From assembly GCA_014728035.1 (NCBI GenBank), contig WJMJ01000101.1, positions 32,001 through 96,000 of the forward strand: a stretch of DNA of 64,000 nt. The letters run 5' to 3'. This stretch comes from Promethearchaeota archaeon. Lineage in GTDB: Archaea > Asgardarchaeota > Thorarchaeia > Thorarchaeales > Thorarchaeaceae. Within the stretch, counting starts at the first letter, position 1. Every line of letters begins with the position of its first letter. The position numbers and the translations under genes are program-made. Of this stretch, positions 378 through 26,353 are shown piece by piece. The notes under the pieces are model-generated. The model ran no database searches. It saw only the letters and a list, made by a program, of their open reading frames with translations, and was not told the DNA's origin.

Positions 378-931
378 ATATGATTGACGATCCAATCTTA
401 CAACAATTAATTTCTAAAGTAGCACAACATGAAACACAAAATGACATCGATGATATTGATGACAATATGGGTGAAGACATAGATGATACACACGATGAAG
501 ACATAGATGATACACACGATGAAGACATTGTCGAACCAGATGATATAGGTACTAGTGACATTGTGCCCACAGAAGATGCAGACACCGAAGTGGATGCTAT
601 TAATGCAGATATATCAGACGGCAATAATACGCCTGAAGACGATATTGATAATGATCTTAATAACAAATTCAACGAAATGGTAAACGAAGTACATCAAAAT
701 TATAAACAAGATAGAGAGAATATATCTGATTTTATAGAATTCCTTAAACACAAGATTGAAAATGACGAAGGCATGCCTGTGCGCGTATATTATGAATCAC
801 TGTCTTCTTGTCTGCGAACAAAATCAGAATCATCTGCTACCATGATAAAATTGCTAGACAATATCAATAAAAGAACAAATAAAGAGAGTGGTGGCCTTAA
901 TATTAATTTGCAAGAATTATTGCAAGAATGA
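374..931 (+). CDS. Acidic hypothetical protein, candidate terminase small subunit by position only
   Basis: 185 aa with a D/E-rich N-half and helical C-half; ATGA overlap with terL. Confidence 0.55.
   Translation: MNMIDDPILQQLISKVAQHETQNDIDDIDDNMGEDIDDTHDEDIDDTHDEDIVEPDDIGTSDIVPTEDADTEVDAINADISDGNNTPEDDIDNDLNNKFNEMVNEVHQNYKQDRENISDFIEFLKHKIENDEGMPVRVYYESLSSCLRTKSESSATMIKLLDNINKRTNKESGGLNINLQELLQE
472..528 (+). repeat. 24-nt coding tandem repeat (EDIDDTHD, about 2.4 copies)
   Basis: TGAAGACATAGATGATACACACGA repeated exactly. Confidence 0.9.
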
Positions 932-3900
932 ATGATTTAACCAAAAGCAAAATTAGAAAAGTCATTAAGGATTGCCAAAGTTCCTGCGATTATTTTATTA
1001 ATAAATATTGCAAAGTTAAGCACCCATCTGCTGGCATCATACCTTTTACCACTTTCTCATATCAAAAGAAATGCCTAAGAGCATTTCAAGAACACCGGTT
1101 CAACATTTTCAGTAAAACCCGACAATGCTTTGCTGAAGGTAGCATGGTTTGGACTCCTTTAGGCCCAAAACCCATAGAAAGCATAAAACCACATGACATT
1201 ATATATACATTAAAAGATGGTATTTTGACTACGGCGCAAGTCAGTAAAGTGTTTAACAATGGTTCTGCAGAATGCGTTCAGGTGCGCACCAAGTCAGGAC
1301 ATAGATCTATCAGCACACCAGATCATAAATTTTTAACCTATGATGGATATAAGGAAGCATCACTATTAACTCAAAATGATATTCTTGTGGAAGTTAATGA
1401 CCTACCTCACTATAATACAACAGATAATAGATCCAAAGCAATACTTCTGGGATACCTAATAACCGACGGATATTGTGCAGGATCTGCTCATTTTACCAAT
1501 ACCAGATGGAAATATCTATTGGATTTCCAAAAACATTACGAACTTTTGTTTAATGACAGATTGAAAATTAAGAAGCATTCAACATCTGGTTTTGGATCTG
1601 AGGCAGCATTCCGCATATGCTTGCGTAAAGACGGCAAAGAATGGCTAAAGAAATTGGGAATATGGGGATTAATAGGAGAAAATAAGCGCGTACCTAACGA
1701 AGTTTTTTCTTGGGATAATGATTCTATAGCGATCCTTATTAATAGGATGTTTGCTGGCGATGGATGGTATACAGGATCGATAAACACTAATGAGGCAGGG
1801 ATTGGATCTGAATCTAATATATTGTTGCATCAAATCAAGCAATTGTTATCAAGATTTGGCGTAAATTCAAAATATTGTCCAGCGAATAAAATATCTTTAC
1901 CTAAATTGCGCATAGTGGGTGGTAGAAGTTTTAAGAGATTTCATGATATAATAGATATATTTGGTAAGAAACCAAGACACAAAATAACGAAAGGATTTAT
2001 ATTTAACCGCAAAATTGGTCAAGTCTTGTCTGTTACGCCAGTGGACGGTAATAGACAAGTATATGATTTGCTCGTACCACCAAATCATAATTATGTGGTG
2101 GACGGAGCCGTAGTTCATAATTGCGGAGCGTCAACTCTATCTGGGTCTTTTGCTTTATGGTTTACCATGTTCTTTGGAAACAAAACAACACTCATCACCT
2201 CGAAAAGAGATAATGATGCCAAAGAATTTATGGGCAAGAATATCAGGTTTGTGTGGGATAATCTTCCTGATTGGATGAAATCAATTTGGCAACCCACAGT
2301 TGACAACGAACACGAATTTGGATTTTCCAATGGATCTAAAATTAAATCATTGCCATCCGGACCACATACATTAAGACAATTTTCATCATCTCTCAATATC
2401 ATTGATGAGGCTTCTGTATCTCCACATATGGAAGAAATGTGGGCATCTGGATCTCCCACGTTACAACACGGAGGTCGATGTTTATCCGAAGATTCATTGA
2501 TTGTTACACGAGATGGGTTGGTTTCTATAAGCAAAGTGAAAGATGGTGATGACATCATATTAGATGGTATACATAATGTAGAGTCCAAATACGTCAACAA
2601 AGACATTGAAGACACCATTTCTATAACCACTAGTGATGGACACTATGTACAAGCAACTCCAGATCATAGATTTAAAACAATAAACAATGATGGTGACATA
2701 TCATGGAAATTAGTGTCTGACTTATCATTGGGCGACCACCTAATACTCGATTGTGAAGAAATACAATATGGTAGTATACAAGAATTAGACGACAATATTA
2801 ATAAACTTATTGCTATAAAATGTGGTTGCGACAATGGATGTATTAGCTGCGCAACCTCGATGAATATGTTGAGAAATAAACATATTCCGAAGAGTCTAGA
2901 TGAGAATTTATCATTATTATTGGGGTGCGTATGGGCAAATGGGTTTATTCAAGATTGTGGCAGAATTGGTATATCATATAATAGTAAGTATGGTGATTTA
3001 TCAGATAAAATAAAATCAATAATAAATAATATACCCCATATGCACACATGGGAAGAACAACACAATGGGGATCACAGTATACGGTTTCATTCAAAGTCAC
3101 TGACACTTGCTTTGGAATTAAATGGAATTATAAAAGCATCAGCGAATTATATAGAAATACCCAGTTTGATTTTGAAATCGCCTGAAAATGTGCGTTGTTC
3201 TTTCTTGCGTGGATTTTTTGAACTAGATGGTAGTATATCAGGCGATCAAGTATCAGTGTCTTCCACCAGTCTACGCATGCTAAGACAGATACAAATTATG
3301 CTTCTTAATATGGGAATGCGCAGCATAATTGCTACGTATGAAAGAACCAATGGATATGCAGAGGGACTACAACATGAGTTAACCCTCAAAACCAAGAATG
3401 ATGTGATTAAATTTAGAGATAAAATTGGGTTTCTAAGTACTTATAAACTTAATCTTTTAAATAATGTAAATGCAACTAAGCGATCGCACAATGATCGTTT
3501 CACACATCAAAACGCAATTGATAAATTTTATGACGCCAGCAAATCTTTACCGTCAACTACTAGACAGAGAATATTACAATGCAAAAGAAATTCATCCTTG
3601 CCCAGATATCTAGCCAAAACCATGTGTGAACATGAATGTTTAAAGAATACTTCATTGGGGATATTAGCCAACACCAATAAGTTTACAGATACTATTGTGA
3701 ATTTAGAACAATCAAAATCTTATGTACAAGATATACAGGTGTCAGATATTAATTCTTATGTAGCCAATGGTTTTGTATCACACAATTGTTTAGTAGTCGC
3801 GACTAGTAATGGCATAGGCAATTGGTATTGGAAGACATGGACTGATGCGGTCGCTGGTTATAATAATTTCCACCCAATCGTTATCGATTGGTGGGATATG

Positions 3901-5082
3901 GATTGGGAAATTAGATATAAAGATTCAATAAGCGGTAAGATGATCATATTATCGCCAACGCGTAACATGAGAAAATGCAGAGATGAAAAAGAAAGAGCAA
4001 AATATGGCCCATATTGGAGTCCATGGTTAGAAAATGAATATAGACAACTGGTTGCCCGTGGCGGAGAGAATCTGTTCAGACAAGAAATATTGAGGGATTT
4101 TCTTGGTAGTGGCAATACAGTTATATCGCGTGATGCCATTTTACATATTAGGGAGACTGAAAACAGAGATTATGAAACAGTTAAAAATGTGGATTTTGTA
4201 CACCCAGTGACAGGAGATAACCACAGAATAGAATTTGATGATAACTTATGGGTGTGGAGAAAACCACAACCTGATCATGTGTATACAGTTGGTGTTGACA
4301 TTTCTGGTGGAGAATCACACGACTGGTCTGCCATAGAGGTATTTGATGTCTTGGAACAAGAGCAGGTGGCGGAGTTACAGATCAAAACCACCCCAACTAA
4401 TCTTGTAATGATGGTAGATTTCATCGGTAGATGGTATAATAATGCCATAGTAGTTCCTGAGCGTACTGGTATTGGGCAGACAGTTTGCCAAGATTTAGAA
4501 GTGGCACATTATCCACGGTTGTGGCGACGTAATATGTTACACAATGGAAAGGATAAAAATAGCACCAAAAAATCAAACCATGTTGGCTTCTTAACCACTG
4601 GATCAGGAAAACCAATCATAAATAGAGCATTAATAGATAATTTGGGTCCAGATGGATACAACATATATTCGCACAGATTATGTCAACAAATCGAAACATA
4701 TGTACATCTTGGTGCTGGTAAAACTGGTGCTGAAAAGGGCACATTAAATGATGATTTACCAATTGCATCTGGATTGGCATTTATAGGTGCAGATCAAGCA
4801 GTAGTACGTGGTAATAATATATTATTACCATTGATTTCTGATGTTAATAGTATTACCAACAAATATACTACACAAAGAAATAATGATGGACCAAAAGTAA
4901 TTAAGGACCATAATGCCCTTCAACCAGTGGGCACAAAACAGGAACCAGATAGGAATACAGACATCCAAAAGCAGGTTACCGAATTCACCACAAATCTGAT
5001 CAAACAGCCCAATGTAGAACTTCCACGGGTAAAGAAACGTAATGATAATGGTCAGAAATTGCTGTTTGGAATTCGCAAATAA
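928..5082 (+). CDS. terL: Terminase large subunit (T4 gp17-like) with two inteins
   Basis: YQ adenine-binding motif, KTRQ/CGAST Walker A region, IIDEA Walker B, ATSNG motif III, RNase H-like VGVDISGG and NDD; lies directly upstream of the portal. Confidence 0.95.
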   Translation: MNDLTKSKIRKVIKDCQSSCDYFINKYCKVKHPSAGIIPFTTFSYQKKCLRAFQEHRFNIFSKTRQCFAEGSMVWTPLGPKPIESIKPHDIIYTLKDGILTTAQVSKVFNNGSAECVQVRTKSGHRSISTPDHKFLTYDGYKEASLLTQNDILVEVNDLPHYNTTDNRSKAILLGYLITDGYCAGSAHFTNTRWKYLLDFQKHYELLFNDRLKIKKHSTSGFGSEAAFRICLRKDGKEWLKKLGIWGLIGENKRVPNEVFSWDNDSIAILINRMFAGDGWYTGSINTNEAGIGSESNILLHQIKQLLSRFGVNSKYCPANKISLPKLRIVGGRSFKRFHDIIDIFGKKPRHKITKGFIFNRKIGQVLSVTPVDGNRQVYDLLVPPNHNYVVDGAVVHNCGASTLSGSFALWFTMFFGNKTTLITSKRDNDAKEFMGKNIRFVWDNLPDWMKSIWQPTVDNEHEFGFSNGSKIKSLPSGPHTLRQFSSSLNIIDEASVSPHMEEMWASGSPTLQHGGRCLSEDSLIVTRDGLVSISKVKDGDDIILDGIHNVESKYVNKDIEDTISITTSDGHYVQATPDHRFKTINNDGDISWKLVSDLSLGDHLILDCEEIQYGSIQELDDNINKLIAIKCGCDNGCISCATSMNMLRNKHIPKSLDENLSLLLGCVWANGFIQDCGRIGISYNSKYGDLSDKIKSIINNIPHMHTWEEQHNGDHSIRFHSKSLTLALELNGIIKASANYIEIPSLILKSPENVRCSFLRGFFELDGSISGDQVSVSSTSLRMLRQIQIMLLNMGMRSIIATYERTNGYAEGLQHELTLKTKNDVIKFRDKIGFLSTYKLNLLNNVNATKRSHNDRFTHQNAIDKFYDASKSLPSTTRQRILQCKRNSSLPRYLAKTMCEHECLKNTSLGILANTNKFTDTIVNLEQSKSYVQDIQVSDINSYVANGFVSHNCLVVATSNGIGNWYWKTWTDAVAGYNNFHPIVIDWWDMDWEIRYKDSISGKMIILSPTRNMRKCRDEKERAKYGPYWSPWLENEYRQLVARGGENLFRQEILRDFLGSGNTVISRDAILHIRETENRDYETVKNVDFVHPVTGDNHRIEFDDNLWVWRKPQPDHVYTVGVDISGGESHDWSAIEVFDVLEQEQVAELQIKTTPTNLVMMVDFIGRWYNNAIVVPERTGIGQTVCQDLEVAHYPRLWRRNMLHNGKDKNSTKKSNHVGFLTTGSGKPIINRALIDNLGPDGYNIYSHRLCQQIETYVHLGAGKTGAEKGTLNDDLPIASGLAFIGADQAVVRGNNILLPLISDVNSITNKYTTQRNNDGPKVIKDHNALQPVGTKQEPDRNTDIQKQVTEFTTNLIKQPNVELPRVKKRNDNGQKLLFGIRK
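1126..2121 (+). mobile_element. Intein 1 with LAGLIDADG homing endonuclease (332 aa), inserted in the TerL Walker A region
   Basis: Starts CFAEGS, has block B TPDHKF, LLGYLITDG and MFAGDG motifs, ends VVHN followed by Cys. Confidence 0.93.
2479..3786 (+). mobile_element. Intein 2 with LAGLIDADG homing endonuclease (436 aa) in TerL
   Basis: Starts CLSEDS, has TPDHRF and FLRGFFELDG, ends VSHN followed by Cys. Confidence 0.93.
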
Positions 5083-5097
5083 TTCGCAGGAGACAAC

Positions 5098-6915
5098 ATG
5101 TCTTGGCAGCTATTTGATAGAATAAGATCTTTCTTTCGTACAGCAGATCTATATAGACAAGATAGTCTATTGCAGGACCAAGACAATTTATCAAGAACCA
5201 CCCATGGTGGTGAGTTTATTAATTATTCAAATGGTGGTCTAATTGATCAAACCAATCTACACATAAATCGTCTTGAGAGATATAAAGATTATGATCAAAT
5301 GGATCAGATGGGTGAAATTTCATTAGCTCTTGATTTATACGCGGATGAAGCCACCCAGATCGATAACGAAGCCAAACATGCCCTGAACATACGAGCACGC
5401 AGTAAAAAGGTCAAAGAAGAGCTTGAAAGCTTATTTTATGATACCCTAAATATCGATTATAGAATCAGACCAATTGTAAGATATCTATGTAAATATGGTG
5501 ATTTTGCTGCTGAGATTGTCGCAAATAAAAATAGAGATGGCATATCATCATTTAAGCATGTCAATGTATATAATTTTGTCAGGGTTGAGACTATATATGG
5601 AGATTTAGTTGGATTTTACTTCGCAGAATCAATGGCGGAGCCAACTTTCCTGCACCCGTGGCAGACTTTACACATGAGGTTAACATCATATGAACTTCCG
5701 TTTAGACCATATGGAAGAAGCATACTAGAAGGTGGTCGTAGAGATTTTAAACGACTACGACTTATGGAAGATGCCGCACTTATCTATAGAATTACCAGAA
5801 GTCCACTTAAAAGAGTGTTCACCATTCCAGTGGGCGATATTCCACCACACGAGGTGCCAGATTATCTCAATAACATTGCTGACCAGTTCAAGCGCAAGCG
5901 GTTTTTTGATCCTGCCACCGGAGACGTCAATTGGCGATATATGCCATTAATCCAGGAAGATGATTATTGGATGCCAGTCCGACAAGATGGCACTGGTCCC
6001 AAGGTAGAAAATCTTCCTGGTGCTGAGAATCTTGATCAAATAGCGGACATATTGTACTTTAAGAAAAAGATGATCAGTGCCCTTAAAATTCCTTTTTCAA
6101 GGGTTGGATTGGGTCAAGATGGTACCGAGTCATCCAATGACAAAGCATTATCACATACAGATTCTGACTTTGCCAAAGCAGTACAATGGGTCCAAATGAC
6201 CACGACTATTGGCCTGAAAAAGATCGCGCTCGTGCATCTGGCATTGAAGGGATTTGGCATTGAAGATCTGCAAAATTTTGATCTTTCATTAACGGCATCA
6301 TCTGCAATTGATGAATTGTATCGAATAGAAACCTGGAATTCGAGAGCTACTGTTATTTCGAATCTCAAGGAGACTGGGCTGTTTCCAGACGAGTGGATAT
6401 TGCAGCATTTTACTGATATGACAGATGACGAAATAACACAAATGCAAGATGAAACATTGCCATCCGATCTGGAACAAGCACTCGAAGAACTGCCCACTGA
6501 GGAAGGTGGTGGAGAAGAAGGTCTGGCCGAGCTTGGCCTAGAAAGCCAATTTGATACGGGACTGGCTAAAAACGTCATTCATGAATATGCAAAATTATCG
6601 AAACCAAAATTGATAGAAAATACAAAATATAATAGTGGATTTGACGCTATAGCAAATGAAAACGAGTTTAATGGCATATTTGTACCCAAGTCAGAAAGCA
6701 AACCAAGTAATGATCCATTTGTGTTGACAGAAGATATTAATGAAAATGAAGAAGATGACGATTCCAGAGCTTTATCAGAACAATGGGGCGATGATTATAA
6801 AGACATAAAAGAGCTACTTGAAGAAAACCGCAAGACTATCGAAAACATCCAACACACTAAAGTAGAAGAGGATGATGAAATAACTTATGAAATGGTATCA
6901 AAAATCACTAAATAA
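5098..6915 (+). CDS. Portal vertex protein (T4 gp20-like) with acidic C-terminal extension
   Basis: LRLMEDAALIYRITRSP, EDDYWMPVR, VENLPGAENL, DILYFKKKMISALKIP motifs; AGGAG RBS. Confidence 0.95.
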   Translation: MSWQLFDRIRSFFRTADLYRQDSLLQDQDNLSRTTHGGEFINYSNGGLIDQTNLHINRLERYKDYDQMDQMGEISLALDLYADEATQIDNEAKHALNIRARSKKVKEELESLFYDTLNIDYRIRPIVRYLCKYGDFAAEIVANKNRDGISSFKHVNVYNFVRVETIYGDLVGFYFAESMAEPTFLHPWQTLHMRLTSYELPFRPYGRSILEGGRRDFKRLRLMEDAALIYRITRSPLKRVFTIPVGDIPPHEVPDYLNNIADQFKRKRFFDPATGDVNWRYMPLIQEDDYWMPVRQDGTGPKVENLPGAENLDQIADILYFKKKMISALKIPFSRVGLGQDGTESSNDKALSHTDSDFAKAVQWVQMTTTIGLKKIALVHLALKGFGIEDLQNFDLSLTASSAIDELYRIETWNSRATVISNLKETGLFPDEWILQHFTDMTDDEITQMQDETLPSDLEQALEELPTEEGGGEEGLAELGLESQFDTGLAKNVIHEYAKLSKPKLIENTKYNSGFDAIANENEFNGIFVPKSESKPSNDPFVLTEDINENEEDDDSRALSEQWGDDYKDIKELLEENRKTIENIQHTKVEEDDEITYEMVSKITK

Positions 6916-7254: not shown

Positions 7255-7342
7255 GTGTTAAGTTCATACGGTCGTGGTTGAAACGGCACAAAGACATATA
7301 TGAAAGCCCAATGGTTAAACATAGTAATAACAACAAACATGA

Positions 7343-7497: not shown

Positions 7498-8709
7498 ATG
7501 AGTGACCGGAAATCTGGGGGGAACGGGACGTATGCATCGTCCAACATGTATGAGATTCCTGACGCACCGCCTCTGTTCAAGAAGGACGAGCAGCAATGGT
7601 CTGCCAAATTGCGCACACTGCGGAACAAGACATTCAAAAACAAGGATCAGTGGGAAGGTTATCTTGAACGATATTTGTCGATCAAGTCTGGCAAAATAAG
7701 TGAATATCAATACCAAGGAGACCCATCGGCACTAGCTGAATACGAAAATTTCGTATGCGAATTTACTGAGAGATTGTCTTATATATGTGTCAAAGAGGCC
7801 CAAAAATTGGTTCCTCAATGTCGCAAGGGTCTGCAATATGGTGATCTGATTACTGAGGGTACCATGGCAGTTCATGAAGCCATCCACAGACATAAGTTTC
7901 GTGATTTGGTTAGCACATGCAGTAACCCGCAAATGAAGTGTGGTACGTGTGGCAAGGTTCATCAGATAACCAACGGGCAGACCATATGCTCACAACATGG
8001 ATGTGATGGCAAACTCAAGCCCATATGTAATCACGTGACTCGCAAACCAGAGGTCAGTGAATGTCCGAAATGTGGACACAAAATGTCCACACCAGCCTTC
8101 TCTGGGTTTGTGCGAAAACTGGTGCGCACCCGAATGTGGACTTTTCTTGACGACAACAGTAATACCATAAAGAAGCCAACGAGCAAGATAGAACTCATCT
8201 ATGTGGCGAACAAAGGTACGAGTTATAATGATGATGTGGCAATGAATAAGTTGGCCAAGAAAGTAAATATACCGGTATCAGAACTGCGTTCTTTCATGAT
8301 CCCAACGGCTTCTATCAACAATATAGAAAATGAAGAAAGCATTCAGCTTGCAGATCGTAGTGACAACAACAAAGACAGTCTAGATGCAAGACGCAGAAAA
8401 TATATCACCAAGGCTATTCAATTGGCAACTAGTGGTAATGATGAATGTGATTTTGATGAATTAAATCGCAACACAAAGATCTACATTGCCAACCAACTTA
8501 TGAATGATTATAAGGATAGCAATCAGGGTGGGTCTATGTATAGCCTATCATCCCTGGCTGAGATATACGGTGTTACCAAGCAGCGCATTAATCAACTCAT
8601 CAAGCGAGTGGATAAAAACTTACGCAATACCCGTGATCCTCGGGTATTTGGGTATCTTATCAAGGCAAGATTAGTGGGAACTGAGTTCGACGAATTCGAC
8701 GAGGAATAG
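7498..8709 (+). CDS. Phage sigma70-family factor with zinc-ribbon insertion
   Basis: Region 2.2-like YGDLITEGTMAVHEAI, region 2.3/2.4-like FSGFVRKLVRTRM..NTIKKP, region 4 HTH SLSSLAEIYGVTKQRINQL; start placed at the ATG after AAAGGAG. Confidence 0.85.
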   Translation: MSDRKSGGNGTYASSNMYEIPDAPPLFKKDEQQWSAKLRTLRNKTFKNKDQWEGYLERYLSIKSGKISEYQYQGDPSALAEYENFVCEFTERLSYICVKEAQKLVPQCRKGLQYGDLITEGTMAVHEAIHRHKFRDLVSTCSNPQMKCGTCGKVHQITNGQTICSQHGCDGKLKPICNHVTRKPEVSECPKCGHKMSTPAFSGFVRKLVRTRMWTFLDDNSNTIKKPTSKIELIYVANKGTSYNDDVAMNKLAKKVNIPVSELRSFMIPTASINNIENEESIQLADRSDNNKDSLDARRRKYITKAIQLATSGNDECDFDELNRNTKIYIANQLMNDYKDSNQGGSMYSLSSLAEIYGVTKQRINQLIKRVDKNLRNTRDPRVFGYLIKARLVGTEFDEFDEE

Positions 8710-8719
8710 CCTATCCACC

Positions 8720-8769
8720 CATGGGCGGGGTTGGTGCCCCCACACCGATAACCCCGCCCATGTCTTTTT
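8720..8769 (+). terminator. Rho-independent terminator between the convergent sigma and AKR genes
   Basis: 13-bp perfect stem CATGGGCGGGGTT/AACCCCGCCCATG followed by TCTTTTT. Confidence 0.85.
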
Positions 8770-9695
8770 CATGGCTTATGTCCAACCACCGTATGTGGAT
8801 CCCCTAGATCATCCCTCGAATCATACCCGCCAAATTTGCTTCTGAAGAATTGTGACCTTTTAACATACCCTTTCGATTTTCCCTCAATATGCTGCATCTG
8901 TGATGATGTCAAAGGTTTAAAGCTTCTAGCTATAGCCACGTTTTCTTCTAACTGAGCAATGTTATCACATCCAACAATAATAGTGCTTATGGGTAAAGAC
9001 ATAGAATAAGACAATGTCTCCCATGCAGTGGTTATACCTTTGGGATGGAAAATATAACCCTGCGCGAACACTTTCATCCCTATAATGCCTAATTTTCTAC
9101 GATTAGCCACAGGAATGAATGTTTTAATGAATGAAGGATCAACATGTTTGTCAGCCGCATTTAAAGGTATCAACGCTGTATCAAAATCGAATCTGTTGGC
9201 AAGTTCAATGAGCGGTTTAGGATGCTCATGCCCAGTAAAACCCAAATTTTTGACCACACCTTGTTCTTTCATTTCCACCAATGCCTCTAGAGCACCACCT
9301 TGTGAGGTCACTTCATTAACTTCACCAATATTCTCAATATGATGTATCTGCCACAGATCAATATAATCTGTTTTTAATCTTTTTAATGATTTTTCTATGA
9401 GTCGCATTGAACCATCATATGATCTATCATGTGTTTTTGATGCCAAAAACACGTTGTTTCTCCATCCCTTCATAGCATTACCATAATAATCCTCGGAAGG
9501 TCCATACACAGGTGATGTATCGAAATAATTTATGCCCAATTCGTAGGCTCTATTGATGATATTAACCATATCATCTTGCCGCCCACGATGAGTCTCTAAA
9601 GCACCTTGCCCACCCAAAGATAATATACCAACTTTGGTTCTAGTTTTACCGAGAGGTCTTTGGGGTATTTGATCGATGTCTTCATTGAGTCTCAT
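8769..9695 (-). CDS. Aldo/keto reductase
   Basis: RPLGKT, GINYFDTSPVYGPSE, LASK, SLKRLKTDYIDLWQIH, LGFTGH motifs; GGAGG RBS. Confidence 0.95.
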   Translation of the reverse strand: MRLNEDIDQIPQRPLGKTRTKVGILSLGGQGALETHRGRQDDMVNIINRAYELGINYFDTSPVYGPSEDYYGNAMKGWRNNVFLASKTHDRSYDGSMRLIEKSLKRLKTDYIDLWQIHHIENIGEVNEVTSQGGALEALVEMKEQGVVKNLGFTGHEHPKPLIELANRFDFDTALIPLNAADKHVDPSFIKTFIPVANRRKLGIIGMKVFAQGYIFHPKGITTAWETLSYSMSLPISTIIVGCDNIAQLEENVAIARSFKPLTSSQMQHIEGKSKGYVKRSQFFRSKFGGYDSRDDLGDPHTVVGHKP

Positions 9696-22287: not shown

Positions 22288-22596
22288 ATGGGCGATCGTG
22301 TCATAATCTACGGAATGCCAAATTGTGGGAAATGTGAAGCAGCGAAAGATAAGCTCAAAAGATTTAACATACCATTTGAAGAGGCATCATACGAGAAATT
22401 TGTTACTGTGCATGATGGTTGGAGAAATGATGGTAGTATAAAGGTTATGGCGGCACGCAATTATTATGGTGAGACTCATGTGCCATTGATCAGACAGAAC
22501 GGTACGGTATTTGATTATCCAAGTTTCATGAAACATTTAAAGAATAACAGATTGACACCAGACAGGAGTAAGCATGCCACCGAGGTTCGTGTCTAA
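22288..22596 (+). CDS. Glutaredoxin/NrdH-like redoxin
   Basis: IIYGMPNCGKC..VP; GGAGG RBS; overlaps the nrdD start. Confidence 0.85.
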   Translation: MGDRVIIYGMPNCGKCEAAKDKLKRFNIPFEEASYEKFVTVHDGWRNDGSIKVMAARNYYGETHVPLIRQNGTVFDYPSFMKHLKNNRLTPDRSKHATEVRV

Positions 22597-25396
22597 GAGA
22601 GATGGTCGTAGCGTTTTATTTAATAAAAACAAAATAACTGAATCAATACTGGCCGCATCATCTGAGGTGAAACCATTCACACGTGATGATGTCATGCCCA
22701 TAGTTGATTCAGCTATTGAATTACTGCATCATGAAAAGATCGATGCAACGTCTATTTATAAGGTAGTTGTTGATACTATACAAGGAAATGGCCATCCGGA
22801 CGTTGCAGATGCGTATGTTGATTATCGGAAGACACGCACAAATATTAAGAGTATAACTAAAGTGCGTAAGCAGGTGTCCGGCCATAATGATGCTACAGAT
22901 ATCAATTTGCTGGTAAGTCCAGAAAGTAAAGCAGAATATCATGGCTGGGATAAATCAAGAATTGCAGATGCTCTTGTGCTGGAAGCTGGTGTAAACAGAA
23001 CAGAGGCAGAAGAGATAGCCGCAATAGTTGAGAGGCGCATATTTAAATCCGGCATAACGATGGTGTCAACGTCTCTCATCAGAGAACTGGTTGACAATGA
23101 ATTATTTGAAAGAGGATATCAGAACTCACTTCAGAAACAACGTGTTATTGGTATGCCACGGCATGACATAGAAGAACTGATATTTTCTAAGAGCAAAGAA
23201 AACTCAAACATAGCGACCAACAATCCAGAAGCTGTGGGGCATTCAATAGCAGAGACTGTTCTTAAACAGTATGCATTGCAGGAAGTGTTTTCAGAAGAAG
23301 TAGCAAATGCACATAGAATGGGCATTTTTCATCTGCATGACTTGGGATACCCACACAGATTATATTGTGGAAGCCATTCCGTTGAATATATTAAGAAGTA
23401 CGGGTTGAGATTACAAAATCTTGATTCATTTTCTGCACCAGCAAAGCATGCACGTAGTCTCACCACTCAACTCAATACATTTTTAGCTAGTATGCAGGCA
23501 TATTATGCCGGTGCTCTTGGTGTTGCGCATATCAACATAATGTACGCACCATTGGTAGACGGAATGTCTGACACAGAATTGAAGCAGGAAGCACAACATC
23601 TTATATTTCAAGCATCACAATCTGCCTATACGCGGGGTGGGCAGTCGGTCCATGGTGATGAATGTATTATCATATACGACACGATCGAAGATAGAACATA
23701 TTATCCTACTATTAGTGAATTTTATCTAAATTTTGTTAAGGATCGGTATCATACATTGTCTATGAATCGATCTAATGGTATGTTGGAATGGAAATCCATA
23801 TTGGGCGTGGTGCAGCATAATCTACGATCAGAGCTTATGAAAGTAACTATAGCAAACGGTTTGTCAGGGATATTTACTGAAGATCACAGTTTGTTTACTG
23901 TAGATGATGGCCAAATTGTTGAATGTATGACAAGCAAAGCCCATAATATTATGGTATATCATGTGGGTGATATGCCAGATTATGTTTCTCTATGCGATAA
24001 GATTAGTAATGATCCAATAGCAAAGCTGTGCGATGTGAGTATCGAGCCATTTAATGATGGAAGTAAATATGTATATGATTTATCAGTAGCTGATAATGAG
24101 AATTTCTTACTATTAAATGGTATTATAGCCCACAACACGTTGTTTAGTGATTTTAATATTCATACTGGAATACCTTCATATCTGAAGGATGTGGATGCTA
24201 TAGGTCCTGGTGGTGAATATAATGGCAAGAAATACGGTGATTATGCCGAGGCGGCTACCAGGTTCACTAGAGCCATGATGGAAGTGTGGTATGAAGGAGA
24301 TGGGGATGGTCATCCAATGGCTTTCCCGAAGAGTGACTTCCACATTAGTCATGATACATTTGAAGATCCTGAGCAAGTTAAATTACTTGATTTTGCTTGT
24401 GAGACGGCAGCAAAAAATGGATCTACATATTTCATATTCGACAGAGATGAGGTTACATTATCTGCATGTTGCAGGTTGAGAACAGCAGTGCGTGATCAGT
24501 ATATGATCAAGCACCCGGAAAGTCTGCGTTTTTGTGGATTTGGGAACATAACCATCAACTTGCCACAATGTGCATATCGTGCTGGTCGTGGTAATATAAA
24601 GAAATTTCACGAAGAACTTGAGAGTGCGATGCATTTAGCTGTTGATGCGCACTTGCAAAAACGCAAGTTTGTAAATAGATTAATGAGTGGGCCATCCATG
24701 CCATTGTGGCAAGTTGGCAAGATTGCTTTTGATGGTCGTAAATATGTTGATTTAGACACGTGCACATATATTATAGGCATTATTGGCTTGAATGAATGTC
24801 TTCATTTCTTGACAGGCAAGGAACTTCATGAAGACGAAGACATGCTTCGCCAAGGACTTGAAATCATAAGTTATATGTATTTTGTGGCCAAAGAATACGG
24901 TGACATGCACAATATGAAGTTTTCTCTTGAAGAAAGTCCTGCAGAATCAGCGTCAAGACGTTTGGCCAAAATAGACGTACAAAATTATGCCTGTGCCGCC
25001 GATTTTGTGCGTGGTGATGTTGATGCTGATGAAATGTACTACACAAATTCTATTCATCTTAGGCCCGATGCAGATGTTGATATCGTAACTCGTATTAAAT
25101 CACAATCTAGATTCCATGATCTCATAGAATCTGGCGCTATTATACACGCTTTCGTAGGAGAAAATCAACCATCTCCTGGTGCAATCAAGAGTCTGGTTAC
25201 AAAGACTTTCTATAACACACATGCAGCCCAAATAACAATATCGCCAGAATTTACTGTATGTAGTTGTTGTGGGTCCATTAGAGTTGGAATGACAGACATA
25301 TGTTATAAATGTGGATCCAGGAATATTGATGCTTCGAGAGAAGACCCAAATCGCGAATTTAATGGGTGGGATAGAAACATAATCTCTCAATTGTAG
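22574..25396 (+). CDS. nrdD: Anaerobic (class III) ribonucleotide reductase large subunit with tandem ATP-cones and a mini-intein
   Basis: VSKRDG cone, HLHDLG..YC, SACCRL finger loop, EESPAES, YYTNS, C-terminal CxxC..CxxC zinc site. Confidence 0.93.
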   Translation: MPPRFVSKRDGRSVLFNKNKITESILAASSEVKPFTRDDVMPIVDSAIELLHHEKIDATSIYKVVVDTIQGNGHPDVADAYVDYRKTRTNIKSITKVRKQVSGHNDATDINLLVSPESKAEYHGWDKSRIADALVLEAGVNRTEAEEIAAIVERRIFKSGITMVSTSLIRELVDNELFERGYQNSLQKQRVIGMPRHDIEELIFSKSKENSNIATNNPEAVGHSIAETVLKQYALQEVFSEEVANAHRMGIFHLHDLGYPHRLYCGSHSVEYIKKYGLRLQNLDSFSAPAKHARSLTTQLNTFLASMQAYYAGALGVAHINIMYAPLVDGMSDTELKQEAQHLIFQASQSAYTRGGQSVHGDECIIIYDTIEDRTYYPTISEFYLNFVKDRYHTLSMNRSNGMLEWKSILGVVQHNLRSELMKVTIANGLSGIFTEDHSLFTVDDGQIVECMTSKAHNIMVYHVGDMPDYVSLCDKISNDPIAKLCDVSIEPFNDGSKYVYDLSVADNENFLLLNGIIAHNTLFSDFNIHTGIPSYLKDVDAIGPGGEYNGKKYGDYAEAATRFTRAMMEVWYEGDGDGHPMAFPKSDFHISHDTFEDPEQVKLLDFACETAAKNGSTYFIFDRDEVTLSACCRLRTAVRDQYMIKHPESLRFCGFGNITINLPQCAYRAGRGNIKKFHEELESAMHLAVDAHLQKRKFVNRLMSGPSMPLWQVGKIAFDGRKYVDLDTCTYIIGIIGLNECLHFLTGKELHEDEDMLRQGLEIISYMYFVAKEYGDMHNMKFSLEESPAESASRRLAKIDVQNYACAADFVRGDVDADEMYYTNSIHLRPDADVDIVTRIKSQSRFHDLIESGAIIHAFVGENQPSPGAIKSLVTKTFYNTHAAQITISPEFTVCSCCGSIRVGMTDICYKCGSRNIDASREDPNREFNGWDRNIISQL
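23645..24136 (+). mobile_element. Mini-intein (164 aa, no endonuclease) in NrdD
   Basis: RGGQ|SVHGDE.., block B TEDHSLF, VYDLSV..NENF..IIAHN|T. Confidence 0.9.
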
Positions 25397-25462: not shown

Positions 25463-25600
25463 ATGCAAATGCCAAGTTGCTGCAGGGAAGCGAAAGTATT
25501 ACACGAAGCATATTATGATGGCCATTTGTTTAGATGGTTGAGATGTGATATTTGTGGTGGTTTGCGTCTAGAGAAAGTGGACCATCAACGGGTTGCATAA
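25463..25600 (+). CDS. Small zinc-ribbon protein (45 aa, below the ORF-track cutoff)
   Basis: MQMPSCC...LRCDICG; GGGGG RBS-like site. Confidence 0.55.
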   Translation: MQMPSCCREAKVLHEAYYDGHLFRWLRCDICGGLRLEKVDHQRVA

Positions 25601-25730
25601 TTACACCCTATGTACAATTGATGTCGGCAATATATAATATTAACTAACAATGTCAGGCCCTCATCCTCGGGCCTAAGCTCACCCACGATGGTGAGTAATC
25701 TCCGGATGGAGACCATACAACGGGTGTAAT
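25600..25730 (+). ncRNA. Putative structured RNA / leader abutting the first CRISPR repeat
   Basis: Closing stem ATTACACCC/GGGTGTAAT plus three internal GC-rich hairpins (25655-74, 25678-95, 25699-712). Confidence 0.55.
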
Positions 25731-26056
25731 GTGACGTCCACGTACGCATGGGAGGATGGAAAGGAGGGCCAGCCATGGCTTCGATCTACAAGTGACGTCC
25801 ACGTACGCATGGGAGGATGACACGCCTTAGTCTCTCAGAGTCACAGTGGCCGGTGATGCCCACGTACGCATGGGAGGATGGCTTGATGTGGTTGCTTCGG
25901 CACAAAAACATTGCGTGATGCCCACGTACGCATGGGAGGATGGACTATGTAGCCGCGTGCCGCTCTTTCCGAACGTGACGCCCATGTGGGAGGATGGCCG
26001 ACGGCGAACGGTGTAGATTCGGCGTGACGCCCACGTACGTATTGTACGCGTGGATG
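25731..26056 (+). CRISPR. Cas-less CRISPR mini-array, type I-E-like (6 repeats, 5 spacers)
   Basis: 29-nt repeat GTGAYGYCCACGTACGCATGGGAGGATGR at 25731, 25792, 25853, 25915; degenerate copies at 25975 and 26024; unique spacers of 32, 32, 33, 31 and 26 nt. Confidence 0.92.
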
Positions 26057-26074
26057 ATATAGGAGGTATATATT

Positions 26075-26353
26075 ATGGGATATTATATTCGTACATGGTT
26101 CGCTTGGGTGATATCGGCACACCATTTTTGCGATACTATTTCTTTGGCAGCAAGAAAATCCAAATTTGACAAAGGAATTGAATCATTGAGAATGATCTAT
26201 CAAACAATAGACAATCTTGGATGGCGATATTATCCAATGAAATTATATATATATCTGTATCATAATGATCAGATGGATCTTTTCTCATTATATAATGAGA
26301 TGTCAATATATAAGGATTCGGACAAAAATATTAAAACAAAATTGCCTACATAG
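26075..26353 (+). CDS. Hypothetical protein immediately downstream of the array
   Basis: AGGAGG RBS; 92 aa; no Cas motif recognised. Confidence 0.55.
   Translation: MGYYIRTWFAWVISAHHFCDTISLAARKSKFDKGIESLRMIYQTIDNLGWRYYPMKLYIYLYHNDQMDLFSLYNEMSIYKDSDKNIKTKLPT

Follow-up and report, generated by a model that had tools for sequence, protein, structure and literature searches.

Does a CRISPR-like array carried by a phage, with no cas gene in the 64 kb around it, depend on the interference machinery of a host, or does it serve an effector that has escaped recognition? The array that raises this question lies at positions 25731–26052 of a 64,000-nt stretch of DNA (hereafter, the window), which comprises bases 32001–96000 of contig C70 (121 kb) from the assembly of a Thorarchaeota MAG (4.33 Mb in 173 contigs, with an estimated contamination of 8.5%). 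The contig is that of a tailed phage, encoding a large terminase, portal, clamp loader, baseplate wedge, an intein-bearing NrdD and glycosyltransferases. The original prediction, made from the window sequence, described a 'Cas-less' mini-array of type I-E geometry and proposed that it might borrow a host Cascade or provide guides for an unrecognised effector.

Four 29-nt repeats start at positions 25731, 25792, 25853 and 25915, at a spacing of 61, 61 and 62 nt (determined from the sequence and with a repeat finder), and are followed by one truncated and one degenerate copy. The five spacers, each of them unique, measure 32, 32, 33, 31 and 26 nt and have a higher G+C content (45–65%) than contig C70 (∼38%). 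The last base of the repeat is A in repeat 2 and G in the other repeats, the variants GACGTCC, GATGCCC and GACGCCC are all present, and the decay of the array sits at its right end, in agreement with the original description. With the internal stem of its repeat (one C–A mismatch on the + strand, and a 7-nt tail after the stem) and its ∼32-nt spacers, the array also has the geometry of type I-E, as had been pointed out. It was missed by Tandem Repeats Finder because the spacers break the period. Since five other arrays of the assembly belong to the same repeat family, the window array is not a product of chance; it is a genuine phage-borne CRISPR-like mini-array. The features of the locus are the following:

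25463–25600, + strand: 45-aa zinc-ribbon ORF (from the ORF list and its translation), the immediate upstream neighbour; membership in the system is not implied
25611–25638, + strand: sigma-70-like promoter match (consensus scan, 10/12 positions), with a predicted start ∼9 nt before the scaffold
25655–25674, + strand: scaffold hairpin 1 (from folding), 6-bp stem and 8-nt loop
25677–25696, + strand: scaffold hairpin 2 (from folding), 7-bp stem and 6-nt loop
25699–25712, + strand: scaffold hairpin 3 (from folding), 5-bp stem and 4-nt loop
25713–25730, + strand: linker between scaffold and repeat 1, 18 nt, conserved in 5/6 copies
25731–25759, + strand: repeat 1, 29 nt
25760–25791, + strand: spacer 1, 32 nt, joined to the scaffold via repeat 1
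25792–25820, + strand: repeat 2, 29 nt, last base A
25821–25852, + strand: spacer 2, 32 nt
25853–25881, + strand: repeat 3, 29 nt
25882–25914, + strand: spacer 3, 33 nt
25915–25943, + strand: repeat 4, 29 nt
25944–25974, + strand: spacer 4, 31 nt
25975–25997, + strand: truncated repeat 5, 23 nt owing to an internal 6-nt deletion, with the conserved 3' ten bases intact
25998–26023, + strand: spacer 5, 26 nt
26024–26052, + strand: terminal degenerate repeat, 72% identity, lacking the conserved 3' end

As the terminal repeat lacks the conserved 3' end, no guide is expected after it. A 92-aa ORF (window 26075–26353), which has a ribosome-binding site and matched no family, starts 23 nt past the last repeat and could be transcribed together with the array. 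Small zinc-ribbon ORFs resembling the upstream neighbour in kind adjoin the effector described below, or its arrays, also on contig C131 and in the related loci L053, L054 and L056. They were considered as a fourth component of the system and dropped, having no significant mutual similarity.

The 76 nt that precede repeat 1 turned out to be a conserved structured RNA, made up of a 58-nt three-hairpin scaffold and the 18-nt linker. A leader had been predicted on the left; the array does run rightwards on the + strand, but what stands upstream of it is this structured RNA and not a plain leader. Seven bases of the hairpin 1 loop are the reverse complement of repeat positions 22–28 and, thus, form a potential anti-repeat. 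Linker bases 25722–25727 could, as read from the sequence, pair with repeat positions 4–9 if G–U pairs are included, and the three repeat variants differ at these positions by transitions only, so that the G–U pairing with the linker is kept; this part of the linker may represent a second anti-repeat.

The scaffold is not peculiar to the window. Six arrays of the repeat family are distributed over three phage contigs: three on C70 (the window array and two upstream of the window), one on C74 and two on C131. Each is preceded by the 58-nt three-hairpin element, the copies of which are identical at 56–58 of the 58 bases, with variation confined to the hairpin 2 loop. In four of the five copies outside the window, the scaffold is immediately preceded by an AT-rich box resembling a –10 element. 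No spacer is common to any two of the six arrays, and spacer lengths across them are irregular (17–35 nt). The scaffold of the window array is that of array D, which adjoins the effector gene, save for one loop base, while the spacers of the two arrays are all different. Arrays A and B, both on C70, are badly damaged, and some of the six units may be decaying.

When the 21 repeat units were aligned by their right ends, conservation amounted to 96% for the last ten bases, 79% for the middle and 66% for the 5' third, and the truncated repeats always retain the 3' end. Repeat function therefore appears to be concentrated on the bases next to the 5' end of the spacer, as in type V guide RNAs. Along the same lines, the two arrays of C131 (locus L046, 6886–7131 and 9648–9991) have the scaffold and the 3' ten bases of the repeat in common and differ in the 5' parts of the repeat; in a related locus, L082, two different repeat types are likewise found around a single effector. 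The effector seems to read just the scaffold and the repeat end.

The original prediction had left the orientation of the array unsettled. Four lines of evidence lead us to regard the + strand assignment as settled, as far as sequence can tell: the scaffold and the promoter-like site stand upstream; the arrays run the same way as the flanking genes; the 3' ten bases of the repeat are far more conserved than its 5' third; and in nearly all related loci the direction of the array is that of the effector gene.

Tetranucleotide composition of C74, C118, C27, C131, C160 and C158 correlates with that of C70 (r = 0.93–0.97) better than it resembles a host contig; for C131 and C74 the correlation is 0.95–0.96 to C70, compared to 0.81–0.86 to the host contig. 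The seven contigs, C70 included, sum to ∼210 kb. The assembly has a single gene for a major head protein, which is located on C131, and a single portal gene, on C70. Accordingly, C70, C131, C74 and the others are, on strong but indirect evidence, likely to be pieces of a single tailed phage of ∼210 kb; C70 and C131 are placed in one phage by their composition, by hallmark genes that occur once each and complement one another, and by a scaffold identical on both, rather than by a joined sequence. C27 and C131 share ∼134 nt at their left ends, in reverse complement, and C118 overlaps C160 at both ends; joins in the assembly graph, or else a bubble or circle, may account for these overlaps, which could be of use in closing the phage genome.

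The genes of this phage are rich in selfish inserts. The large terminase ORF (window 928–5082) encodes 1384 aa and contains inserts that resemble helicases and endonucleases, and an intein splicing domain is present in NrdD (window 22574–25396). On C131 (L046, 3459–5630), PHROG matches point to a head-closure protein with an HNH endonuclease-like segment that is either fused to it or interrupts it.

The absence of cas genes from the window was confirmed, there being no match to Cas1, Cas7e, Cas6e or Cas8e within it. Likewise, Cas7e, Cas6e and Cas8e produced no Pfam match anywhere in the assembly, with models that matched just one of 14 control genomes. The single Cas1 of the assembly is encoded on an archaeal contig, C104, beside a different, 37-nt repeat, and the Cas1 search revealed no adaptation genes in the phage. 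The arrays of the binned archaeon (C36 6330–6560, C83 8477–8815 and C104 1–1270) contain two longer repeat types and are found at the ends of contigs, with Cas1 next to one of these arrays; no spacer of the archaeon matched the phage contigs.

We also searched for the repeat and the scaffold in other genomes. The locus has no match in Rfam at gathering scores and none at E ≤ 10, and no CRISPR-DR family was recognised. Exact-pattern scans of IMG/VR with the repeat and with the scaffold returned no match. One genome per species in GTDB yielded no array with the window repeat and 28 single chance matches, and neither did the 399 genomes of the phylum of the binned organism contain such an array; the lone cyanobacterial match to the repeat falls inside a gene. 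A metagenome scan with a 19-nt word of the scaffold gave 21 matches, all of them to unrelated coding sequence. GenBank phages had no match to the window, to the window array locus or to array D, and produced weak GC-rich noise only with the arrays of the relatives L056 and L082. Matching the repeat to bacterial arrays, which had been suggested as a route to the host, thus led to no bacterial or archaeal species genome with such an array.

The effector was found on C131, tens of kilobases plus a contig break away from the window array. There, a gene for a protein of 463 aa with no Pfam match is flanked by two arrays of the repeat family. Sequence comparison with Cas12f proteins in the PDB gave E-values of 1.5e-6 with the single protein and 1.2e-24 with the family profile. 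The structural model of the protein (pLDDT 86.8) matched the folds of AsCas12f (E = 3.9e-18), a Bacteroidota dCas12f (2.3e-16) and TnpB (1.7e-9). The gene is single-copy in the assembly. The 'Cas-less' appearance of the locus is thus an effect of the window and of the fragmented assembly, and of the earlier suggestions, guides for an unrecognised effector came closest to what was found.

The protein has the Cas12f/TnpB fold, encoded on another contig of the phage than the window array, but an intact RuvC Asp–Glu–Asp triad and a zinc finger are missing. In HMMER alignments, the position of the RuvC-I Asp is taken by Ala275 and that of the RuvC-II Glu by Phe385, and members of the family end shortly past the last shared helix–strand motif, without the zinc finger and without RuvC-III. 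The protein is therefore predicted to be incapable of acting as a RuvC nuclease.

A second conserved protein, of 203–230 aa, is encoded next to the effector in seven loci; C131 is one of them, and there the gene for it follows the downstream array. This partner has no sigma-factor or other recognised Pfam domain and no structural match in the PDB. The C131 partner (L046, 10076–10768) displays a sub-threshold Pfam match to the Spt5/NusG NGN domain (E = 0.029, residues 150–188), which, if real, would hint at contact of the partner with RNA polymerase. Between the Cas12f-like gene and the downstream array of C131, in the place that the partner occupies in relatives, stand a gene for a 245-aa protein with no Pfam match (8701–9438; 47% G+C, compared to 41% for the contig) and a 61-aa zinc-ribbon ORF (9455–9640).

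Relatives of the effector were collected from metagenomes. A word-based protein search returned the query alone; an exhaustive HMMER search retrieved 189 cluster representatives at E ≤ 1e-3, with identities of 25–37%. No description of this family was found in the literature searched. The DNA of eleven distinct related loci was examined. CRISPR-like arrays adjoin the effector gene in all eleven, and the three-hairpin scaffold is present in ten; the contig of the eleventh begins inside the array. The scaffolds follow a common plan: a hairpin with a loop of 7–8 nt, a short A-rich joint, hairpin 2, two or three bases, and hairpin 3 with a 4-nt loop. Because two of the related loci carry 29-nt repeats closely resembling the window repeat, a geometry like that of type I-E is considered characteristic of the effector family. 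One locus, L056, contains three scaffold–array units in tandem (4504–5580), each scaffold being closed by a long outer helix that is absent or weak in the phage copies.

The sequences of these scaffolds differ, and 10 of 12 fold on their own into three hairpins. Hairpins 2 and 3 were recovered by RNAalifold, and each of the ten pairs that it predicts (seven in hairpin 2 and three in hairpin 3) shows compensatory changes. Since MAFFT was unable to align hairpin 1 in register, its pairs were counted by a script: the stem is canonical in 58 of 60 cells and displays two to five pair types at four of five positions, that is, compensatory changes. The loop of hairpin 1 forms on average 5.5 contiguous Watson–Crick pairs with its own repeat end (seven in the phage), compared to 2.8 with non-cognate repeat ends, across 12 scaffold types; in 100,000 permutations, the observed sum was never reached. 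The loops and repeat ends used here were read by eye from the folds before the test was run. As regards a tracrRNA with an anti-repeat, what is seen is a loop of which 5–7 nt are complementary to the 3' end of the repeat and covary with it across loci, and no long anti-repeat duplex.

The spacers had been expected to reveal targets and a PAM. The ∼19 spacers had no match beyond 17 nt in the whole assembly. The first 16 nt of the 19 spacers that are long enough, with up to two mismatches allowed, gave no match in the phage contigs, compared to a mean of 1.15 for shuffled sequences. A match of spacer 3 to window positions 7274–7297 (20 of 24 bases) is at the level of chance (∼0.3 expected, by estimate) and was discarded. 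With no spacer target in the assembly or the phage contigs, nor in GenBank phages for the window array and array D, there is neither a PAM nor a direct hint of which genes would be regulated.

Taking the scaffold, the effector and the related loci into account, we consider it probable that the window array is a scaffold-led guide array which serves the nuclease-dead Cas12f-like protein of the phage itself, in a complex that binds DNA without cutting it and likely silences transcription. Positions 25655–26052 would constitute one + strand transcription unit, transcribed rightwards and consisting of the 58-nt scaffold, the 18-nt linker and the five-guide array. A guide RNA would consist of the 3' part of the repeat followed by the spacer, in type V fashion, and the loop of hairpin 1 would pair with the last approximately seven bases of the repeat, beside the guide. 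Such pairing would rebuild the pseudoknot of TnpB omega-RNA. For spacers 2–5 it would have to form in trans; spacer 1 is fused to the scaffold via repeat 1, so that its pseudoknot would form in cis, and it could act as a natural single guide. The guides would be loaded onto the single Cas12f-like protein of the phage (463 aa, C131), beside which the ∼230-aa partner is encoded, and the RNA–protein complex would bind matching DNA and leave it uncut. The anatomy of the array, the co-occurrence of effector, partner, scaffold and arrays, the covariation, and an effector that has lost its nuclease site, were all observed; transcription, processing, loading, binding without cutting and silencing are what we infer from them.

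The most likely outcome of such binding would be the silencing of transcription of genes of the host or of rival elements, because there are precedents in the repression of fliC by TldR and in dCas12f clusters near CRISPR arrays. As the main alternative, the effector could bring its partner to the targets for transcriptional activation or another DNA transaction, a reading that we regard as rather unlikely yet worth keeping in sight. The conservation of the partner beside the effector in seven loci, its NGN-like Pfam match and the precedent of dCas12f–sigma-E (PMC13472631) would agree with recruitment, but the partner has neither a recognised domain, sigma-factor or other, nor a structural match in the PDB, and nothing ties it physically to the effector. 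It is also conceivable, although improbable, that the array once served the effector and is now non-functional DNA that persists only on account of being recent. A remnant would be expected to show what is seen here: a truncated repeat, a degenerate final one, badly damaged arrays A and B on the contig, irregular spacer lengths and no adaptation module. Such decay is difficult to reconcile with four intact repeats, with the 3' ten bases kept even in the truncated one, with a promoter-like site at the right distance, and with a scaffold that equals that of array D bar one loop base while the spacers all differ.

Two further readings assign the array to effectors that the phage does not encode. 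The scaffold and repeats might act as an RNA decoy, that is, an anti-CRISPR of the Racr type which soaks up a Cas12f-type effector of the host or a rival, the spacers being irrelevant. The much better conservation of the scaffold and the repeat 3' end than of the spacers and repeat 5' parts, the many copies dispersed in the genome and the lack of identified targets could be understood in this way, yet a matching protein is encoded by the phage, with an array on either side of its gene; arrays accompany the gene for this protein across 11 loci; no spacer is repeated, and in the four best units of the window array the spacers have the length of guides. We consider a decoy highly improbable. Even less credence can be given to the proposal that a type I-E-style mini-array borrows a host Cascade and Cas3 to act against competitors or host genes. 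It would account for the 29-nt repeat, the ∼32-nt spacers and the internal stem with its 7-nt tail, and a host with a type I-E system is possible, the true host of the phage not being in the assembly. Against it stand the lack of Cas7e, Cas6e and Cas8e in the assembly, the absence of arrays with this repeat from the GTDB species genomes and the 399 genomes of the phylum, the lack of an Rfam CRISPR-DR match, and the occurrence of arrays of the same geometry and with a similar repeat beside Cas12f-like genes in unrelated metagenomic loci; the scaffold and the complementarity of its loop would be left unexplained. As the searches revealed neither Cascade genes in the assembly nor a host array containing the window repeat, the array does not appear to be a member of type I-E. 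The original prediction had allowed that a standard cas operon elsewhere in the genome might explain the array: a gene for a nuclease-dead effector was indeed found elsewhere, together with a partner, but neither a standard operon nor adaptation genes.

How does the system of the phage compare to those already described? With type V-F Cas12f (AsCas12f, OsCas12f and Un1Cas12f1; PDB 8j12, 9nzq and 7c7l) it shares the effector fold and sequence family and, as predicted, a guide located 3' of a repeat-derived handle and a separate structured RNA that pairs with the repeat. It differs in that the phage effector has neither the zinc finger nor any of the three RuvC catalytic positions; in that the repeats measure 29 nt rather than ∼36 nt and the anti-repeat is a hairpin loop of 5–7 nt rather than a long duplex; and in that the scaffold is fused to the head of the array, cas1 is absent and the arrays are dispersed far from the effector. 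Since the nuclease site is missing, the system does not appear to be canonical type V-F; it resembles, rather, a nuclease-stripped type V-F and the TldR and dCas12f repressors.

A nuclease-dead Cas12f that operates with sigma-E has been described in Bacteroidota, in a study which also mentions a separate, uncharacterised dCas12f cluster near CRISPR arrays (Hoffmann et al., Nature 2026, PMC13472631). That protein (PDB 9n9c) and the phage effector are alike in their C-terminally truncated, RuvC-dead Cas12f fold, from which DNA binding without cutting is expected. The family profile of the phage effector, however, scores active Cas12f (E = 1.2e-24) higher than that dCas12f (E = 6.9e-14), so that inactivation may have occurred independently of the Bacteroidota dCas12f. 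Moreover, no operonic ECF sigma factor with a C-terminal extension accompanies the phage effector, the conserved neighbour having no sigma domain; the guides come from arrays plus a scaffold and not from a single chimeric RNA, and the carrier is a large phage.

TldR of a prophage silences host fliC (Wiegand et al., bioRxiv 10.1101/2023.11.30.569447). TldR and the phage effector are both phage-borne, nuclease-dead, truncated proteins, and the repression proposed here would likewise be RNA-guided. In prokaryotic omega-RNAs, the 3' end forms a pseudoknot with the scaffold of the same RNA (PMC13565253), and in the phage, too, the scaffold stands directly upstream of a guide and a pseudoknot is predicted between the scaffold and the guide-adjacent bases. 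The splitting of omega-RNA into tracrRNA and crRNA is a published route from TnpB to Cas12, with TranC intermediates, according to the account of Jin et al. (Cell 2025) given in PMC13565253, and the idea of such a split would fit the phage system. In contrast to TnpB and TldR, one scaffold heads a multi-spacer array in the phage, there is no transposon context, and the protein resembles Cas12f more closely than TnpB in both fold and sequence.

Mini-arrays and solitary repeat units carried by viruses, such as those of Sulfolobales viruses and huge phages, and Racr, copy the repeat of the host in order to use or block its Cas proteins. The arrays described here resemble them in being short, located on a viral genome and free of adjacent cas genes. 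They differ in that none of the host arrays examined shares their repeat (the binned archaeon has other repeats, and the window repeat was present in none of the genomes scanned) and in that the virus brings an effector and a scaffold of its own. Compared to the literature that we found, the fusion of a scaffold to the head of each array, the display of a very short anti-repeat in a loop, the six dispersed arrays, the conserved partner and the viral carrier are new.

What had appeared to be an orphan array thus becomes part of a complete and testable RNA-guided system of a phage, with an effector, a partner, a scaffold and ∼20 guides. Its RNA also has a design of interest, with a single scaffold at the head of an array that would recognise every repeat through a loop of 5–7 nt. 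This natural design bears on the split of omega-RNA into tracrRNA and crRNA and could be copied for compact multiplexed dCas12f tools. A bolder view, which we put forward tentatively and with some doubt, is that scaffold-led arrays are a living intermediate between transposon omega-RNA and split tracrRNA/crRNA, and that the ∼20 guides of the six loci, together with a dead Cas12f and a new partner, reprogram transcription of the host or of rivals at many sites. In any case, the effector family comprises at least 189 sequence clusters, and the finding suggests that multi-guide systems which bind DNA and do not cut it exist in large phages of the lytic type, beyond the prophages that carry TldR or VIPR.
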